Source: a virus (taxonomy: Duplodnaviria > Heunggongvirae > Uroviricota > Caudoviricetes). Taken from it: DNA of 7,450 nucleotides. The translations under genes and the position numbers were made by a program. The notes beneath the pieces were generated by a model. It searched no databases and was not told the DNA's origin. It saw nothing but the letters and a program-made list of their open reading frames with translations. This document shows positions 1,523 through 7,272 of the stretch, one piece after another. Each line of letters begins with the position of its first letter. Position 1 is the first letter of the stretch. The stretch lies in IMG/VR virus record IMGVR_UViG_2531839581_000012. The stretch is one strand, 5' to 3'.

Positions 1523-1954
1523 GTGGCAAAAGTTTTTACACAAGAAGAGCGGGAAAAAATTAAAGGGCAGGTTCTTGAACTCGTACGCCAGAGTGGGCGC
1601 GAGACGTTACGACAACTGGAAGCTAAAACTGGGGCAACAAGATATCTGATGAGCGTTCTGGCCAGAGAGCTGGTTGCCAGTGGCGATGTATACAATTCTG
1701 GCTACGGGTTATTCCCGTCTGAACAGGCTCGTAAAGACTGGCAAAATGCCCGCAAAAAATTATCGAGGGCAAAGCTGAAGAAACCGGTTGTGGTTGATCC
1801 GGACCTTATCTGGTCATTACCAGACGGAGAAATACGCCGCTACGACAGGCGTCTGAACATAATCTGTCGCGAGTGCCGGAAGAGCGAAGTTATGCAGCGT
1901 GTGCTGGCGTTTTATCAGAATGGTTTTCGAGAGAGGCTTGGAGATCAGGGATGA
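1523..1954 (+). CDS. Hypothetical small basic phage protein (143 aa)
   Basis: GTG start at 1523 is preceded by AGGAGGG (1513-1519). Composition is GC-rich and backbone-like. The protein is basic and carries a CRECRK motif. No family was recognised. Its stop (TGA 1952-1954) overlaps an ATG at 1951. Confidence 0.55.
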   Translation: MAKVFTQEEREKIKGQVLELVRQSGRETLRQLEAKTGATRYLMSVLARELVASGDVYNSGYGLFPSEQARKDWQNARKKLSRAKLKKPVVVDPDLIWSLPDGEIRRYDRRLNIICRECRKSEVMQRVLAFYQNGFRERLGDQG

Positions 1955-2172
1955 ATAGAACGATGAAGGATGGAAGCTACATATTCTCGGTACTAAGATT
2001 TATTTTTCTGACACAAAATGACCATTTGGCGTTACATAATCCCAAAAAAACGTATCAAAAATCTCAAAATGCGTTACGATTAGAGAGTATTTTGATTCTG
2101 CGTGCTCATTTTTTGATTGCTGTGGCTTTTTGTTGTGGGAGTGTTGAATGGATTATTTATCAGAAGTGTTAA
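1951..2172 (+). CDS. Candidate small hydrophobic ORF (74 aa) bridging the phage backbone and the ATPase gene; may be spurious
   Basis: ATG at 1951 overlaps the upstream stop (ATGA) and is preceded by GGAGA (1940-1944). The product MNRTMKDGSYIFSVLRFIFL...ILILRAHFLIAVAFCCGSVEWIIYQKC has a hydrophobic C-terminal half. The ORF lies wholly in AT-rich sequence, where hydrophobic ORFs arise by chance, and overlaps the ATPase start by 25 nt. Confidence 0.2.
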   Translation: MNRTMKDGSYIFSVLRFIFLTQNDHLALHNPKKTYQKSQNALRLESILILRAHFLIAVAFCCGSVEWIIYQKC

Positions 2173-3302
2173 AAATCATTGAAGGTGCAACAAAGGCAAA
2201 TGCTTCGATGGCTAGTAATTATGCTGGGTTGCTGGCAGATAAGCTCGAACAAAAAGGGGAGGTCAAGCAAGCCAGAATGATAAGAGAAAGGTTGCTTAGA
2301 GCTCCCCAGGCGTTGGCAGGAGCTCAAAGGGCTGGAGGTGGGATATCTCTGGGCTCATTACCGGTAGATATTGATAGTCGACTCAACACTGTTGATGTCA
2401 GTTATCCTAAATTAGACAGTTCAGAGATTTTTCTGCCTGCAGCAATCAGTACCCGTGTTGAAGAGTTTATCACTAATGTTCAACGTTATGATGAGTTTGT
2501 TAAAGCTGATGCAGCATTGCCGAGTCGTATGCTCGTGTATGGAAAGCCAGGAACAGGTAAGACTATGTTATCTAAGTACATCGCTACCCGCTTAGATTTT
2601 CCACTTCTTACAGTGCGTTGCGATACTTTGATTAGTAGTTTATTGGGACAAACCAGCAAAAATCTTAGACAGGTTTTCGATTATGTAATGCAGAGGCCAT
2701 CAGTGCTTTTTTTAGACGAATTTGATGCTTTAGCTGGAGCAAGAGGTAATGAGAGAGATATAGGTGAGCTTCAGCGAGTTGTCATTTCACTATTGCAGAA
2801 TATGGATGCGGCATCAGAGGATACGGTAATTATTGCCTCAACTAACCATGAGCAACTTCTGGATCCTGCAATCTGGAGGCGATTTAGCTTCAGAATTCCA
2901 ATGCCTCTGCCTGACATACATCAGAGAGAGTTAATTTGGAAAAATCGTTTAAAGAATATGATATGTAGCGATCTAGATTTAAGTGATTTATCAAGAAAAT
3001 CGGAGGGATTATCCGGAGCAATAATTGAACAGGTGAGCTTGGATGCACGTAGGGATGCAGTTATTGAAGGTGCAAGTGTGATAAATCACCATAAATTGTA
3101 TAGGCGTTTGTATCTTGCGCAATCGCTTATGGAAGGTGTAAATTTAAGCACTTACGAAGATGAAATTCGTTGGTTACGTTCTAAAGATAAAAAATTATTT
3201 TCTATCAGAGTTCTTGCTAATTTGTACAAACTTACATCAAGAGTAATTTCAAACATTCTGAAGGAGTCAGGAGCATATGAGCAGAAGGGGTACACAGTTT
3301 AG
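2148..3302 (+). CDS. Classic-clade AAA+ ATPase (384 aa) with a C-terminal helix-turn-helix-like segment; IetA-like by architecture
   Basis: ATG at 2148 follows GGGAG (2137-2141) at 6-nt spacing and an in-frame TGA at 2145-2147. Walker A is GKPGTGKT (G132-T139, nt 2541-2564). Walker B is VLFLDEFD (D190/E191, nt 2715-2720). Sensor-1 and second region of homology read IIASTNHEQLLDPAIWRRFSF (N233, R244/R245), closely matching the canonical AAA pattern TN...LDPA...RRF. The C-terminal FSIRVLANLYKLTSRVISNILKE looks like an HTH. The stop (TAG 3300-3302) overlaps the downstream gene by 26 nt. Confidence 0.85.
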   Translation: MDYLSEVLKIIEGATKANASMASNYAGLLADKLEQKGEVKQARMIRERLLRAPQALAGAQRAGGGISLGSLPVDIDSRLNTVDVSYPKLDSSEIFLPAAISTRVEEFITNVQRYDEFVKADAALPSRMLVYGKPGTGKTMLSKYIATRLDFPLLTVRCDTLISSLLGQTSKNLRQVFDYVMQRPSVLFLDEFDALAGARGNERDIGELQRVVISLLQNMDAASEDTVIIASTNHEQLLDPAIWRRFSFRIPMPLPDIHQRELIWKNRLKNMICSDLDLSDLSRKSEGLSGAIIEQVSLDARRDAVIEGASVINHHKLYRRLYLAQSLMEGVNLSTYEDEIRWLRSKDKKLFSIRVLANLYKLTSRVISNILKESGAYEQKGYTV

Positions 3303-5541
3303 TAACGCAAAAGTTACAAACCCAATGTTAAGAATCCCTTTTTCCAGTAGTGACTTGGGTGCAATAGTAAACGCTGGCGGTGGGGCAAAGGTATTGGTTG
3401 ATGTAACAGCCGAATATAGACAAGGGCTAGTAAGAAATTTAACAACCAGTAAACATTATTTAGAATCCAAACTTTCAGAGTACCCTGGAAGCTTGGGTAC
3501 TTTGGTTTTCAAATTAAAAGACCAGGGAATAGCCAAAACGCATAGGCCGAACAAAATTGCTCAAGAGGCTGGATTGCAAAATGCCGGTCATGCCAAAATA
3601 GATGAAATGTTGGTTGCTGCTCATGCCGGCTGTTTTGACGTATTAGAGTCAGTCATTTTACATCGGAATATTAAAGCGATTTTGGCTAATCTAAGCGCGA
3701 TTGAGCGCATTGAACCTTGGGATGAGAATAGGAAGGTTCCAGGAGGCACTGATGGTTTGTTTGAATCATCAAACATCCTTGTACGACTATTTGAGTACAC
3801 AGGTGAAGATGCAACTTACAACAACTATGAAAACGTTATTTCTATATTAGAACAACACGGAGTTAAATATGATGAGATTAGACCAAAATGTGGTCTTCCC
3901 TTATTAAGGATAATGGATTTATCCCCAAATGATAGATATATATTAGACATTCTCATTGATTACCCGGGTATAAGAACGTTAATTCCAGAACCAAAATATT
4001 CAGCATTCCCGGTTAGTGTAAGTGATTCTGTTGGCATTGAAACAAATAGCTTTCCCGTACCATCAGAAGAATTACCCATTGTTGCTGTATTTGACACTGG
4101 GGTAAGCCCCATCGCGGCAACAATTACTCCTTGGGTAGTGAGTAGGGAAACATACGTAATTCCTCCTGATACGAGTTATGAACATGGGACTATGGTGTCT
4201 TCATTGATATCAGGCGCTCATTTTTTAAATGACAATCATCCATGGATTCCTGATACAAAATCTAAAATCCATGATGTTTGTGCTTTAGATGGAAATGGAT
4301 CTTATATATCAGATTTAATTCTGAGGCTAGCAGATGCTGTAAATAAAAGACCAGATATAAAAGTCTGGAATTTGTCTTTGGGAGGCGGACCATGTAATGA
4401 GCAGATGTTTAGTGATTTTGCGATGGAGTTAGATCGGCTCAGCGATAAATTTGGTATTTTGTTTGTAGTTGCTGCAGGTAATTATGTAGATGAACCTATA
4501 CGTACATGGCCAAATCCTGATCCGCTTGGAGGTGCTGATTTAATTTCCTCTCCTGGAGAGTCAGTCCGAGCACTAACAGTTGGTTCAGTTTCTCATATGG
4601 AAGCTAATGATGCTTTAAGTGAAATTGGAACACCGACACCATATACTCGTCGTGGCCCTGGGCCTGTATTTACTCCAAAGCCAGATATAATCCATGCTGG
4701 CGGTGGGGTTCATAGACCTTGGAATGTAGGAGCAAGCAGTTTAAAGGTCGTAGGGCCAGATAATAGGCTTTGCTCTAATTTTGGTACTAGTTTTGCTGCT
4801 CCAATTGTGGCAAGTTTAGCTGCGCATACATGGCAGAGAATAGCCACTAATTCAGACTTTAATGTTTCACCATCATTGATTAAAGCATTATTAATTCATT
4901 CCGCTCAATTATCTTCTCCTGATTACTCGCCAAGTGAAAGACGCTATTTGGGAGCGGGAATTCCTAATGAGGTTATTGAGACCTTATATGATAGTGATGA
5001 TAGGTTTACTCTGATTTTCCAAACATTCTTGGTTCCTGGGGTGAGGTGGAGAAAGGAAAACTATCCCATACCATCGGCACTTATTCAAAATGGAAAATTT
5101 AAAGGTGAGATTGTAATTACTGCTGCATATGCACCACCACTGAACTCTAATGCCGGCAGTGAATATGTTCGCGCGAACGTAGAGCTAAGTTTTGGCTTAA
5201 TTGAGAATAATACTATAAAAGGAAAAGTACCTATGGAAGGAGAAAACGGTCAATCTGGATATGAGAGAGCTCAAATTGAGCATGGTGGAAAGTGGTCACC
5301 AGTAAAAATTCATCGCAAGGCATTTAATAAAGGAATTACTTCGGGTAACTGGGCTCTTCAAGCTAAAACAACGTTGAGAGCGAATGAACCGGCCTTAATG
5401 GAGCCTTTACCTGTAACTATTGTAGTAACTTTAAAATCATTAGATGGAAACACACAAGTTTATGCTGATGGCGTAAGAGCTTTAAATGCTAATAACTGGG
5501 CTCACTATCCATTGCCTGCTCGTGTGCCAGTTTCCGTATAA
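3277..5541 (+). CDS. S8/subtilase-family serine protease (754 aa), probably cytoplasmic, with large N- and C-terminal extensions; IetS-like by architecture
   Basis: ATG at 3277 is preceded by AAGGAG (3261-3266) and AGGAG (3269-3273). The catalytic triad is in canonical subtilase order with signature contexts: Asp in VAVFDTGVS (D273, nt 4093-4095), His in YEHGTMVS (H303, nt 4183-4185), Ser in GTSFAAP (S505, nt 4789-4791). The oxyanion-hole Asn lies in VVAAGN (N402). The N-terminus MSRRGTQFSNAKV has no hydrophobic signal peptide. About 265 aa precede the catalytic core and about 180 aa follow it. Confidence 0.85.
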   Translation: MSRRGTQFSNAKVTNPMLRIPFSSSDLGAIVNAGGGAKVLVDVTAEYRQGLVRNLTTSKHYLESKLSEYPGSLGTLVFKLKDQGIAKTHRPNKIAQEAGLQNAGHAKIDEMLVAAHAGCFDVLESVILHRNIKAILANLSAIERIEPWDENRKVPGGTDGLFESSNILVRLFEYTGEDATYNNYENVISILEQHGVKYDEIRPKCGLPLLRIMDLSPNDRYILDILIDYPGIRTLIPEPKYSAFPVSVSDSVGIETNSFPVPSEELPIVAVFDTGVSPIAATITPWVVSRETYVIPPDTSYEHGTMVSSLISGAHFLNDNHPWIPDTKSKIHDVCALDGNGSYISDLILRLADAVNKRPDIKVWNLSLGGGPCNEQMFSDFAMELDRLSDKFGILFVVAAGNYVDEPIRTWPNPDPLGGADLISSPGESVRALTVGSVSHMEANDALSEIGTPTPYTRRGPGPVFTPKPDIIHAGGGVHRPWNVGASSLKVVGPDNRLCSNFGTSFAAPIVASLAAHTWQRIATNSDFNVSPSLIKALLIHSAQLSSPDYSPSERRYLGAGIPNEVIETLYDSDDRFTLIFQTFLVPGVRWRKENYPIPSALIQNGKFKGEIVITAAYAPPLNSNAGSEYVRANVELSFGLIENNTIKGKVPMEGENGQSGYERAQIEHGGKWSPVKIHRKAFNKGITSGNWALQAKTTLRANEPALMEPLPVTIVVTLKSLDGNTQVYADGVRALNANNWAHYPLPARVPVSV

Positions 5542-5554
5542 CAACTATATAAAT

Positions 5555-5584
5555 CAAACCCGCTGTAGCGGGTTTGATTTATTT
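5555..5584 (+). terminator. Rho-independent terminator closing the ATPase-protease operon
   Basis: A perfect 10-bp inverted repeat CAAACCCGCT / AGCGGGTTTG (5555-5564 and 5567-5576) with a short loop is followed by the T-rich tract ATTTATTTG. It starts 14 nt after the protease stop codon (TAA 5539-5541). Confidence 0.7.
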
Positions 5585-5870
5585 GTGGGTGTGTTTTATA
5601 AAAATACCGCCCATACACAACAAAATACAAAAAGTATTACAGATAAAAAAGGAGCGTAATGTGCAGATTTGTTGTTTTCCATATTTACTCACCTTAATAT
5701 GATTAATCCCGATAAGATTGTTATTTCAGCGGTTTTCAAATGAAATATTATGCTAATTTGGCAGATTTGCATAACATTAAAATTTAATTTATCTAACCGC
5801 TTTTAATAATAAGCGTTGTATTTTTATCCCAGCAATCTGTTGTTTGGTTTTTATTCCATTAAGGTGGGGC

Positions 5871-5898
5871 TTTACACTGGAGCCAGTTTATTTATACT
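5871..5898 (+). promoter_or_regulatory. Candidate sigma70-type promoter for the downstream nin-like gene chain
   Basis: TTTACA (5871-5876), a 16-nt spacer, then TATACT (5893-5898). It sits at the 3' end of a ~300-bp AT-rich non-coding spacer, about 50 nt upstream of the ATG at 5950. This is a consensus-like match only, with no experimental support. Confidence 0.3.
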
Positions 5899-5949
5899 TC
5901 ATACGTCAGCCTGAACAACTGGCACCTGCTGCGCCAGCAGAGAAAACAG

Positions 5950-6228
5950 ATGGCGCACGATACCAAATTTTACAATTCGGATAACTCTGCCGCCCCTGCC
6001 AGCAGGCACGGGCGGCGTTCTCATGCATTCAAATCTGACTGGTATCAGCACGACCCCTGCACCGAAGAACAGGCTGAATGGCTCATTCAGTGTTACCGCG
6101 GGCGCGGATGCGAGGTTAAAAAAGCCCTTAGCCTCGACTACCGTCACTGGATAATCTCCGTCAGGCTCCCTTACTCAGAACGGCCAGCGCGTCCGTCCCG
6201 CACATTCCAGCAACGGATCTGGAGGTAA
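5950..6228 (+). CDS. Hypothetical phage nin-region protein (92 aa)
   Basis: ATG at 5950 is the only start in its open frame, and the ribosome-binding site is weak. The stop (TAA 6226-6228) is followed directly by the next gene's GTG at 6230. It is first in a chain of tightly packed + strand genes with GC-rich phage-backbone composition. No family was recognised. Confidence 0.4.
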   Translation: MAHDTKFYNSDNSAAPASRHGRRSHAFKSDWYQHDPCTEEQAEWLIQCYRGRGCEVKKALSLDYRHWIISVRLPYSERPARPSRTFQQRIWR

Positions 6229-6229
6229 T

Positions 6230-6649
6230 GTGCGGGTATTACTTCGATCTGTTCTGGTACCGGAACTCGGTCTGGTTATCGTTAAGCCAGGCCGTGAATC
6301 AATGTCAGCATTCCATAACGGCAGAATACTGGTGGAGCCGGAACCAAAAAGCATGCGTAATCTGCCGTCCGGGGTCGTTCCTGCCGCTCGCCAGCCGCTG
6401 GTGGAAGACAAAACATTGCTGCCGTTTTTCAGCAACGAACGGGTGATTCGTGCTGCTGGTGGCGCTGGCGCATTGTCTGACTGGTTACTGCGCCATGTTA
6501 AATCCTGCCAGTGGCCCAGGGATTACACACAGGAAACCGTCATCACGTTAGGTCGGCGCATGGTGTTGTGCTGGCACTGGACAACCAGTTGCGTGACCAG
6601 CCTCGAATCACTTGAGCAACTTGCTCACCAAAACTGTCAGCATGGATGA
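6230..6649 (+). CDS. Hypothetical phage nin-region protein (139 aa)
   Basis: GTG at 6230 is preceded by GGAGG (6221-6225), though the spacing is short. Its stop overlaps the downstream start in an ATGA arrangement (6646-6649), which suggests translational coupling and supports a real gene. No family was recognised. Confidence 0.45.
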   Translation: MRVLLRSVLVPELGLVIVKPGRESMSAFHNGRILVEPEPKSMRNLPSGVVPAARQPLVEDKTLLPFFSNERVIRAAGGAGALSDWLLRHVKSCQWPRDYTQETVITLGRRMVLCWHWTTSCVTSLESLEQLAHQNCQHG

Positions 6650-7272
6650 TTGACGTCATCCGTCACGCAATCAGCGGTACGCAGGAGAGGGAGTTATCGC
6701 TGGCCGAATTATCCTGGTGGGCGGTCTGCAATCAGGTGGCTGATGCGCTTCCGGAGTCTGTATCGTGTCGTTCACTGGGATTACCGGTGGAAAAAATCCG
6801 CTCCGTATACCGTGAGAGTGACATCGTACCGGGAGAACAGACTGCCACCAGCATACTGAAGCAGCGCACAAAAAATATTGCGCTGCCACTTCACGCCCAC
6901 CAGCAACAGCCCCCACTCCAGGAAAAGACGTTAGTAAGCATCGCCGTTGATCCGGAGTCTCCGGCTCAGTATCTCCAGCGCCAGAAACCACAACGGGAAG
7001 AGATGCCTGTATACACGCGCTGGGTAAAAACGCAGAAATGCATGACGTGCGGTAATCAGGCAGATGATCCGCATCACATCATTGGTCATGGCCTGGGAGG
7101 TATGGGAACAAAGGCTGATGATTTGTTTGTTATTCCGCTGTGCCGTAAATGTCATAACGAACTGCACGCCGGGGTAAAAGATTTTGAAGAAAAATACGGC
7201 AGCCAGCTGTTGTTGCTGATTCGTTTTTTAATGCACGCGAGAAATTCGGGTGTCCTGAAGTGGAAAGCATGA
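6646..7272 (+). CDS. Phage nin-region protein (208 aa) with a C-terminal Cys/His cluster; putative zinc-binding or HNH-like domain
   Basis: ATG at 6646 overlaps the upstream stop (ATGA). Its stop (TGA 7270-7272) abuts the ATG at 7273 of the rusA-like gene. The C-terminus reads CMTCGNQADDPHHIIGHGLGG...CRKCHNELH, a C-x2-C ... HH ... C-x2-C-H arrangement. It resembles conserved prophage proteins found next to rusA or Q; a DUF968-type assignment is possible but uncertain. Confidence 0.6.
   Translation: MIDVIRHAISGTQERELSLAELSWWAVCNQVADALPESVSCRSLGLPVEKIRSVYRESDIVPGEQTATSILKQRTKNIALPLHAHQQQPPLQEKTLVSIAVDPESPAQYLQRQKPQREEMPVYTRWVKTQKCMTCGNQADDPHHIIGHGLGGMGTKADDLFVIPLCRKCHNELHAGVKDFEEKYGSQLLLLIRFLMHARNSGVLKWKA

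Follow-up and report, generated by a model that had tools for sequence, protein, structure and literature searches.

The window analyzed here, a 7,450-nucleotide stretch of a caudoviricete virus (IMG/VR record IMGVR_UViG_2531839581_000012), carries a gene for an AAA+ ATPase followed by one for a subtilase-like peptidase. The question that this locus raises is whether the pair belongs to the IetAS family of conflict systems or represents a new variant, and what it might do for the prophage and its host. We conclude, with a probability of about 0.9, that it is a canonical IetAS, i.e., a two-gene, toxin-antitoxin-like system for abortive infection defense that forms accessory cargo of a lambdoid Escherichia coli prophage.

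Identification of the gene pair as IetAS

The two open reading frames have the extents and lengths that the sequence-only reading gave them; in the ORF listing, they lie on the same strand in the order ietA-ietS and overlap by 26 nt:

2148..3302, + strand: ietA ("iteA" in RefSeq), AAA+ ATPase, antitoxin-like partner, 384 aa (PADLOC, NCBIfam, Pfam, RefSeq)
3277..5541, + strand: ietS ("iteS" in RefSeq), predicted cytoplasmic S8 subtilase, probable toxin/effector, 754 aa (PADLOC, NCBIfam, Pfam)

They probably constitute one operon read as a single transcript. Shine-Dalgarno sequences precede both genes, GGGAG 7 to 8 nt 5' of the ATG of ietA, whose start codon agrees with RefSeq, and AGGAG 5' of the ATG of ietS at position 3277. 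In profile searches, IetA matched the PADLOC IetA model PDLC02196 (8.9e-143; residues 1-374 on profile positions 1-371 of 374) and the NCBIfam equivalog NF042959 ("IteA"; 526.6 bits against a cutoff of 510 bits; profile positions 1-367 of 367), while IetS matched the PADLOC IetS model PDLC02197 (1e-299; residues 12-753 on profile positions 3-748 of 749) and the equivalog NF042956 ("IteS"; 1038.5 bits against a cutoff of 900 bits). The original AAA and S8 assignments are supported by Pfam, with AAA (PF00004) at residues 128-253 of IetA (2.6e-30, 106 bits) and Peptidase_S8 (PF00082) at residues 268-544 of IetS (1.1e-25, 91 bits). RefSeq names the corresponding proteins of E. coli TW10722 "anti-phage ATPase IteA" and "S8 family anti-phage peptidase IteS," and hundreds of homologs already bear IetA/IetS names in databases. 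Because the IetA and IetS profiles are matched over their full lengths, both equivalog cutoffs are exceeded, and the RefSeq names concur, the pair is, as judged from sequence, an already known system: of the two options in the earlier description, "IetAS-like or a new variant," only the former stood.

An unrelated ATPase-protease pair that merely resembles IetAS, be it a new variant or some other system, might be suspected from the low similarity of IetS to the Agrobacterium plasmid-type protein (28% identity to the IetS of pRiO132, confined to residues 260-736; BLASTP, 3e-30) and from its N-terminal 260 residues, for which a Pfam search matched no family. Against this, the profile matches are full length and take in that very N-terminal region, the equivalog scores and RefSeq naming point to IetAS, and the Agrobacterium pair shares the same best profiles. 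The full-length PADLOC matches and the equivalog scores thus refute this explanation, which we consider very improbable. The coupling of an ATPase to a subtilase, earlier regarded as a mechanistic oddity, is an already published, defining trait of the IetAS family. IetAS has been named, validated in relatives, picked up by standard defense finders, and annotated automatically by RefSeq; the value of the present locus is therefore descriptive, namely, a record of a prophage-borne IetAS copy at a site where lambdoid prophages of E. coli carry varying cargo.

Prophage setting, regulatory elements, and distribution

Homology to the prophage of E. coli MSHS 472, which is otherwise 97%/82% similar, stops at position 1929 and restarts at 5557, and the same slot is filled by different cargo in related prophages. 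The following features are recognized in and around the inserted segment:

about 1930..5556, no strand: AT-rich IetAS cargo cassette of ~3.6 kb, occupying a lambdoid prophage slot whose content varies (homology break and GC content)
2048..2080, + strand: conserved 33-nt upstream block, AAACGTATCAAAAATnTnAAAATnCGTTACGAT, a candidate promoter/operator proposed from its conservation
5549..5582, no strand: palindromic GC-cored hairpin, terminator-like on both strands, 8 nt 3' of the ietS stop codon

The GC content of the cassette is 35 to 45% (~40% overall) versus 50 to 59% in the flanks; ietA and ietS are each 40% GC (GC3 of 0.33 and 0.27, respectively), compared with 50 to 54% GC for the adjoining prophage genes, which bears out the description of the region as AT-rich cargo. 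Upstream lie genes for YdaT, a replication initiator, and DUF977, and downstream lies DUF968/HNH; the TW10722 locus, part of a complete lambdoid prophage adjoining ompW, adds RusA and an antiterminator further downstream. The slot is thus flanked by the replication module of a lambdoid prophage on one side and by its DUF968/RusA/Q genes on the other, in line with the original placement between the replication and nin/Q modules.

Outside three N positions, the upstream block is matched exactly in TW10722, phage vB_EcoS-683R6, and two Klebsiella prophage copies, and the ietAS region of the latter two has only ~69% DNA identity overall. A consensus scan predicted no sigma-70 site upstream of ietA, and expression of ietAS in the lysogen is therefore an assumption. 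The downstream hairpin comprises a 15-bp stem, ATAAATCAAACCCGC-TGTA-GCGGGTTTGATTTAT, with a T-rich run inside the stem end and TTGTGGG next on the + strand.

Copies at least 99% identical are present in 78 of 5,426 complete E. coli genomes (about 1.4%), each as a single copy, and in one sequenced phage; the copy in phage vB_EcoS-683R6 is 99.6% identical. A 74%-identical Klebsiella copy retains the partner, gene order, and 26-nt overlap, and the AAA gene likewise adjoins an IetS gene in the same order in Pseudomonas aeruginosa, where the neighbors are Fic, NERD, and AAA_15/AAA_21 genes, and in Agrobacterium pRiO132. Taken together, the homologs occur in prophages, plasmids, ICEs, and defense-island-like regions and not in secreted-protease or housekeeping operons, which agrees with the sequence-only reading of the pair as a defense module.

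Is the copy in the window still functional? The neighboring DUF968 gene has a reading frame broken by 16 single-base deletions, the ietS annotation is disrupted in 2 of the 78 E. coli copies (H152 and H153), and the IetS of the window carries R81K relative to that of TW10722, observations that would fit a decaying remnant in a degraded prophage. However, neither of the two frames is interrupted or shortened, every catalytic residue is in place, the cassette differs from that of TW10722 by one substitution over 3.4 kb, and the cluster of deletions in DUF968 looks like a sequencing artifact rather than decay. The change at residue 81, where 42 of 45 homologs have R, is conservative. We accordingly view loss of function as improbable.

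The protease IetS

The active site of IetS could be mapped completely:

4093..4791, + strand: catalytic residues of IetS (D273, 4093-4095; H303, 4183-4185; oxyanion N365, 4369-4371; S505, 4789-4791)

These four residues, in the contexts DTG (D273), HGT (H303), NLSLGG (N365), and GTSFAAP (S505), are invariant across 45 IetS homologs, and the full-length homologs keep to a range of 748 to 771 aa. The Asp/His/Ser triad recognized at the outset is hence intact, and S505, proposed as a mutant position, is indeed the serine of GTSFAAP. The structural model (pLDDT, 82.9; pTM, 0.87) has as its best PDB folds ProN-Tk-SP, KP-43, PCSK9, and furin. It predicts a build like that of a proprotein convertase, with a prodomain-like region at the N terminus, followed by an S8 core and, at the C terminus, a beta domain. 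Structure searches found no solved structure of IetA or IetS.

A simple hydropathy check, as opposed to a dedicated predictor, found neither a signal peptide nor a transmembrane segment in IetA or IetS (Kyte-Doolittle maxima for IetS of 1.48 for 19 residues anywhere and 0.99 for the 15-residue mean in the N-terminal ~40 residues). This result bears on the notion that the subtilase is secreted or serves housekeeping, with the ATPase as its chaperone, and that the pair has no part in phage or plasmid conflict: S8 peptidases are mostly secreted, and the nearest solved folds belong to proteases that are secreted or act in the secretory pathway, but the hydropathy profile, the exclusive location of ietAS genes on mobile elements in accessory positions, and the published toxicity and defense activity of relatives (PMC13069673; bioRxiv 10.1101/2022.08.27.505566; PMC5006074) all run counter to it, making it the least credible of the explanations considered here.

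The ATPase IetA

The structural model of IetA has the fold of a classic-clade AAA+ ATPase, like FtsH, PAN, and p97. The features of note are as follows:

2541..2564, + strand: Walker A, GKPGTGKT, aa 132-139 (K138), invariant in 43 homologs
2634..2648, + strand: pore-loop-1 position, S-S-L-L-G, aa 163-167, from alignment with K-L-A-G of p97 D1 and M-W-F-G of p97 D2
2706..2726, + strand: Walker B, LFLDEFD, aa 187-193, with L187, L189, D190, E191, F192, and D193 invariant in 43 homologs
3153..3263, + strand: C-terminal three-helix HTH-like tail, aa 336-372, in the AlphaFold2 model

With sensor-1 (ASTN, aa 230-233) and the arginine finger (RR, aa 244-245), all four motifs first reported from the translation were located, and K138, the other proposed mutant position, falls inside Walker A. 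The ATPase residues K138, D190/E191, N233, and R244/R245 are intact and invariant across the 43 IetA homologs. So are S163, S164, L166, and G167 of the pore loop, L165 being at least 90% conserved. In the alignment, IetA lacks the aromatic-hydrophobic-Gly pore loop 1, having S-L-L-G versus M-W-F-G in p97 D2, and instead resembles the nonaromatic K-L-A-G of p97 D1. This nonaromatic loop argues against a simple model in which an unfoldase feeds a protease. The tail is modeled as helices at 336-346, 353-359, and 364-372, with a pLDDT of >90 for the block. The equivalent tail of the Agrobacterium homolog gave Pfam HTH matches below threshold (best, HTH_22, 3.6e-4), and that of the window gave none in a Pfam search; the modeled helices suggest that the tail might bind DNA.

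Function and possible mechanism

IetAS was first described on pTiC58, as a toxin-antitoxin system acting in stability and incompatibility (PMC13069673, PMC5006074), and the S026/S025 pair of SGI1, reported to be 50% and 36% identical to the pTiC58 IetA and IetS, respectively, is a functional toxin-antitoxin system that helps to maintain the element (PMC5006074). IetS, the protease, acts as the toxin and IetA, the ATPase, as the antitoxin, and defense depends critically on protease activity, as in ietHAS, for which mutated ietA was not clonable (PMC13069673). Antiphage activity has been published for IetAS homologs in E. coli and Bacillus subtilis hosts (PMC13069673; bioRxiv 10.1101/2022.08.21.504612; bioRxiv 10.1101/2022.08.27.505566). 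In relatives, expression of one phage protein can suffice to set off toxicity. The Bacillus cereus system acts by abortive infection and is triggered by SPbeta yosG (bioRxiv 10.1101/2022.08.27.505566), and the ietAS of E. coli ECOR52, a system often borne by prophages, gave limited protection on its own (bioRxiv 10.1101/2022.08.21.504612). The defense function originally proposed for the locus fits this literature on a validated antiphage system that is also a toxin-antitoxin pair. By analogy with the pTiC58, SGI1, and ietHAS relatives, the IetS of the window would be toxic and neutralized by IetA, and by the same precedent, the pair would confer protease-dependent protection against phages.

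The same precedents can be read in another way, with the pair serving mainly as an addiction (postsegregational killing) module that stabilizes the prophage, phage defense being incidental or, for this allele, lacking altogether. The origin of IetAS in plasmid stability and incompatibility and the contribution of the SGI1 homolog to island maintenance (PMC13069673, PMC5006074) favor such a role, as do the limited protection by ECOR52 ietAS alone (bioRxiv 10.1101/2022.08.21.504612) and the 78 single-copy, near-identical E. coli copies, which are expected if the system travels with one prophage lineage. On the other hand, antiphage activity is published for homologs, the cassette occupies a variable accessory-cargo slot (cargo of this kind, or morons, typically benefits the host), and the two roles are compatible. 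A chiefly addictive function is thus a possibility to be kept in mind, albeit one that we doubt.

The molecular mechanism of IetAS has been described as unknown (PMC13069673), and the literature searched holds no account of how IetA restrains IetS, what the substrates of IetS are, or what triggers its release. All three questions concern the whole family and are not raised by this locus in particular. For abortive infection by the IetAS of the window, we propose the following course. The lysogen would express the operon from its own regulatory region, including the conserved block at 2048-2080, possibly with autoregulation via the HTH-like tail of IetA. IetA, probably as an ATP-dependent oligomer, would keep the cytoplasmic IetS zymogen-like and inactive until an infecting phage, through one of its products or activities, disturbs this restraint. 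The freed IetS might then cut host and/or phage proteins, such that growth halts before progeny are released and sibling lysogens are protected; the same addiction logic could also stabilize the prophage.

On the basis of the SLLG pore loop, the HTH-like tail, and the conserved 33-nt upstream block, we tentatively suggest that IetA might neither unfold IetS nor feed it but be a DNA-binding, ATP-driven switch that autoregulates the operon and clamps zymogen-like, convertase-type IetS until a phage cue arrives, although we think this unlikely. In that case, the mechanism of IetAS could conveniently be studied in this prophage copy as a native model. The support for such a switch comes from predicted structures and conservation, and none of it is specific to the window.

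Comparison with known systems

IetAS is reportedly, from Gao et al. 2020, an antiphage system of Enterobacterales and Pseudomonadota. With the IetAS of these lineages, the present pair shares full-length profiles, gene order, overlap, protein lengths, catalytic residues, and carriage on mobile elements, and there is no substantive difference beyond the R81K change relative to TW10722. The IetA/IetS of Agrobacterium Ti/Ri plasmids likewise consist of an AAA+ gene and then an S8 gene, with the protease as toxin and the ATPase as antitoxin. In this comparison, which used pRiO132 and not the founding pTiC58, the IetA proteins are 39% identical over 305 residues (BLASTP, 7e-62), and the pRiO132 pair has as its best PADLOC profiles the same IetA/IetS models, whereas for IetS, BLASTP aligned the catalytic and C-terminal domains and gave no alignment of the N-terminal ~260 residues. 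The pRiO132 genes are 52 nt apart and on a plasmid, while those of the window overlap and lie in a prophage. SgiAT (S026/S025) of Salmonella Genomic Island 1 comprises, by its description, homologs of the ATPase antitoxin and of the subtilase toxin on an integrated element, an integrative mobilizable island rather than a prophage (PMC5006074). The ietHAS system (Liu-DS4) has IetA and IetS components in common with the present pair and adds an SNF2-family helicase. Among the ORFs of the window and their Pfam matches, no helicase lies beside ietAS, the neighbors being DUF977 upstream and the terminator-like hairpin downstream; the three-gene variant is ruled out, there being no SNF2-family helicase gene in the operon.

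ATP-dependent proteases with a classic-clade AAA+ partner include FtsH, PAN-20S, and the 26S proteasome; to our knowledge, no known AAA+ protease has a subtilase as its peptidase. The ATPase core of IetA is nearest to p97, PAN, and FtsH in sequence and fold, but translocating motors have an aromatic pore-loop residue that IetA lacks. Unlike the ATPases of AAA+ proteases, IetA genetically restrains its protease instead of feeding it (PMC13069673, PMC5006074). The IetS model is nearest to subtilases that possess both a propeptide and a beta domain at the C terminus, such as Tk-SP, KP-43, furin, and PCSK9, and, unlike these secreted or secretory-pathway enzymes, IetS is predicted from hydropathy to be cytoplasmic.

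Identification of an IetAS gene pair in a lambdoid prophage

A six-frame ORF list of the window and motif scans of the translations recovered two overlapping genes, an AAA+ ATPase followed by an S8 subtilase, with the following features.

2148..3302 (+), ietA, 384 aa, AAA+ ATPase
IetA aa 132-139, Walker A motif GKPGTGKT, including K138
IetA aa 187-193, Walker B motif LFLDEFD
IetA aa 230-233, sensor-1 context ASTN
IetA R244/R245, arginine pair
3277..5541 (+), ietS, 754 aa, S8 subtilase
IetS D273 (in DTG), H303 (in HGT), oxyanion asparagine N365 (in NLSLGG) and S505 (in GTSFAAP)

The ORF coordinates, lengths, strand and overlap (26 nt) proposed in the sequence-only reading are borne out exactly. 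Every ATPase and protease residue that it named was found in the motif scan, in agreement with Pfam, which places AAA (PF00004, 2.6e-30) on the first protein and Peptidase_S8 (PF00082, 1.1e-25) on the second. Both genes have a good Shine-Dalgarno sequence ahead of the ATG, and their starts are those given by RefSeq in the near-identical locus of Escherichia coli TW10722. The pair is AT rich, as had been claimed: both genes have a GC content of 40% (third-position GC of 0.33 in ietA and 0.27 in ietS), against 50 to 54% in the flanking prophage genes.

Profile searches identify both proteins along their lengths. The PADLOC models for IetA (PDLC02196, 8.9e-143, residues 1-374) and IetS (PDLC02197, 1e-299, residues 12-753) match end to end. 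The equivalog-level NCBIfam models NF042959 ("anti-phage ATPase IteA," Ite being the NCBI spelling of Iet) and NF042956 ("S8 family anti-phage peptidase IteS") score 526.6 and 1038.5 bits, above their curated cutoffs of 510 and 900 bits, respectively. These matches establish the earlier identification as IetAS-like and rule out the alternative offered with it, that of a new variant; the pairing of an ATPase with a subtilase, which had been thought mechanistically unusual, is the feature that characterizes the IetAS family in the literature. Full-length profiles, gene order and adjacency, catalytic residues and homology to the plasmid type of the system all concur, and at the level of sequence the pair is IetAS. 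It is already known rather than new: over window positions 1950 to 5900, the TW10722 chromosome differs by one base, and the genes there are annotated iteA and iteS.

The pair is present in 78 of 5426 complete E. coli genomes, in all 78 of which it is at least 99% identical, single copy and chromosomal, and the sequenced phage vB_EcoS-683R6 has a 99.6% identical copy. The experimentally used strain ECOR52 is absent among the matches listed, which cover 60 of the 78 genomes. Homologues number in the hundreds in a large protein collection; many are labeled IteS or IteA by NCBI and UniRef, and they come from Morganella, Klebsiella, Leclercia, Providencia, Pseudomonas, Aeromonas, Burkholderia, Ralstonia, Comamonas and other hosts. 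A 74% identical Klebsiella copy occupies the corresponding position in a lambdoid prophage of that genus and keeps the 26-nt overlap, while a 56% identical Pseudomonas aeruginosa copy adjoins genes for Fic, NERD and AAA_15/AAA_21 proteins and a transposase. A search of the PDB retrieved no structure of IetA or IetS, the matches being only to generic subtilases (best, 9.5e-6) and p97/Cdc48-type ATPases.

The sole difference from TW10722 within the cassette, an A for G at 3518, produces R81K in IetS (window 3517-3519), a conservative change at a residue for which 42 of 45 aligned homologues have R. With both frames intact, the catalytic residues present and one base different from TW10722, we rejected the reading of the locus as a decayed remnant. 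Elsewhere, the match in E. coli F2_81 (NZ_CP043542.1) is in two pieces with an IS3-family transposase under it, and in strains NR3736 and B19695 the ietS region is annotated "S8 family peptidase" plus "hypothetical protein" rather than iteS. These copies suggest occasional natural inactivation of IetAS.

Prophage context and the cargo slot

In TW10722, the pair sits within a complete lambdoid prophage integrated beside ompW. The genes run in the order integrase, excisionase, exonuclease, dicB, repressors, YdaT, replication genes, DUF977, iteA, iteS, a 92-aa ORF, DUF968, RusA and antiterminator, followed by tRNAs, lysis genes, terminase, head and tail. This order is kept in the window, but with a different replication initiator (phrog_3729, 1.1e-256). 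The replication module of the window is mosaic in the region 330-1513: it has this single 358-aa initiator with a DnaT-like C terminus, in place of which TW10722 carries genes for an HTH protein, YdaV and a DUF1627 protein. Identity to TW10722 is 84% over positions 1-329 and 99.3% from 1514 onward, with no homology in between. Directly upstream of the cassette, the DUF977 protein (1523-1954) matches phrog_142 (1.8e-46), a family of the moron/host-takeover category that is labeled "Ren-like exclusion protein."

Homology to the prophage of E. coli MSHS 472 stops at window position 1929 and restarts at 5557, which delimits the ietAS cassette to approximately 1930-5556. The slot so occupied is a variable cargo position. 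Related prophages fill it with small ORFs and hokD, with QueH and hokD, with Ea22-like and other small genes or, in MSHS 472 (NZ_CP041302.1), with two adjacent hypothetical genes coding for 320 and 333 aa (2839-4818 of that locus, L005) and then hokD. The alternative cargo that we tested gave no PADLOC matches and only subthreshold Pfam matches and, being unrecognized as defense, does not make the slot provably a defense hotspot. For the MSHS 472 genes, the subthreshold matches are HEPN_RES_NTD1 (1.9e-4) and GNAT (8.8e-4); this two-gene cargo could be an uncharacterized cargo or defense cassette.

Farther downstream, a stretch of about 120 nt (6516-6634) has sixteen scattered single-base deletions relative to TW10722, and no substitutions lie between them. 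As a result, the DUF968/HNH gene, which is intact in TW10722 (1059 nt), is broken in the window into ORFs 6230..6649 and 6646..7272. The pattern resembles a localized cluster of sequencing or assembly errors more than natural divergence.

Noncoding elements around ietAS

Two noncoding elements flank the genes.

2048-2080, conserved 33-nt block AAACGTATCAAAAATnTnAAAATnCGTTACGAT, upstream of ietA
5549-5582, hairpin with a GC-cored 15-bp stem, 3' of ietS

The prophage copies of E. coli and Klebsiella agree almost completely in this block, whereas their ietAS regions as a whole share only about 69% DNA identity. On the basis of this conservation, it may be a promoter or operator, and is perhaps a target of the helix-turn-helix-like tail of IetA. 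A scan for sigma-70-like promoters upstream of ietA revealed none, the region having 5 sites against a mean of 12.5 in shuffles. Rfam searches over the whole window (E up to 0.1) retrieved no match; the AT-rich spacers thus contain no known RNA, sok-like or otherwise. The spacer between ietS and the next gene (5542-5949; 408 nt, 34% GC) is among these regions free of Rfam matches. Related prophages carry hokD just ahead of the conserved 92-aa ORF; the window has no hokD, and homology to most relatives restarts only at 5891. A promoter-like site (TTTACA, 16 nt, TATACT) at 5871-5898 precedes ORF 5950..6228.

Predicted structures of IetS and IetA

The structure model of IetS (pLDDT 82.9, pTM 0.87) has as its nearest folds subtilases with a propeptide and a C-terminal β domain, the best matches being ProN-Tk-SP (3afg), KP-43 (1wmd), PCSK9 and furin. 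Pfam searches at E values up to 5 retrieved nothing on the N-terminal 262 aa or the C-terminal 206 aa. We looked for a signal peptide and a membrane segment in IetS and found neither; this sets it apart from the secreted subtilases and led us to reject a secreted-protease operon. We read IetS as a cytoplasmic, zymogen-like protease of the convertase type.

The IetA model (pLDDT 79.0) has four parts, namely, an N-terminal three-helix bundle, the AAA+ core, a lid and three short, confidently predicted C-terminal helices. These last helices look somewhat like a helix-turn-helix; the tail of the Agrobacterium IetA has weak, subthreshold Pfam HTH matches, and that of the window protein has none at E values up to 5. 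The core belongs to the classic clade, nearest to FtsH, PAN and p97. Pore loop 1 (window 2634-2648, aa 163-167) reads S-S-L-L-G and is conserved in 43 homologues. Its S-L-L-G aligns with K-L-A-G of p97 D1, which it resembles, and with M-W-F-G of p97 D2, which it does not. An aromatic residue in this loop is typical of translocating motors, and IetA therefore lacks that feature. Thus, IetA is classic clade by fold but without the unfoldase pore-loop signature.

Proposed mode of action and comparison with known systems

IetAS was first described as a toxin-antitoxin system for the stability of pTiC58, in which the serine protease is the toxin and the ATPase the antitoxin; protease activity is critical for defense, and the antiphage mechanism "remains unknown" (PMC13069673). 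The homologous S026/S025 pair of SGI1 is a functional toxin-antitoxin system (PMC5006074). The IetAS of Bacillus cereus confers protection through abortive infection and is turned toxic by expression of the SPbeta gene yosG alone (bioRxiv 10.1101/2022.08.27.505566). In E. coli, ECOR52 ietAS gives limited protection alone and synergizes with Zorya II against T3, and IetAS is often prophage borne (bioRxiv 10.1101/2022.08.21.504612). Our literature search for the mechanism of IetA or IetS from 2023 onward returned only unrelated acronyms and known survey papers.

Going beyond the published genetics, we propose that IetA would use ATP to keep IetS inactive and may repress its own operon. A phage product would disturb this restraint, and the freed IetS would cleave cellular and/or phage proteins, aborting the infection; the identical addiction logic would stabilize the prophage. 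A more novel and less probable reading is that IetA acts as a switch that binds DNA and not as an unfoldase; it concerns the mechanism of the whole family and is not specific to the window.

A three-gene variant of the system, ietHAS, includes a helicase, and a mutated form of its ietA proved unclonable (PMC13069673). The window pair has no helicase gene and hence is not ietHAS. The pair on an Agrobacterium Ri plasmid is of the same type as the founding pair of the family, and we found it to be homologous to the window pair (39% identity in IetA and 28% in IetS), with identical best profiles.
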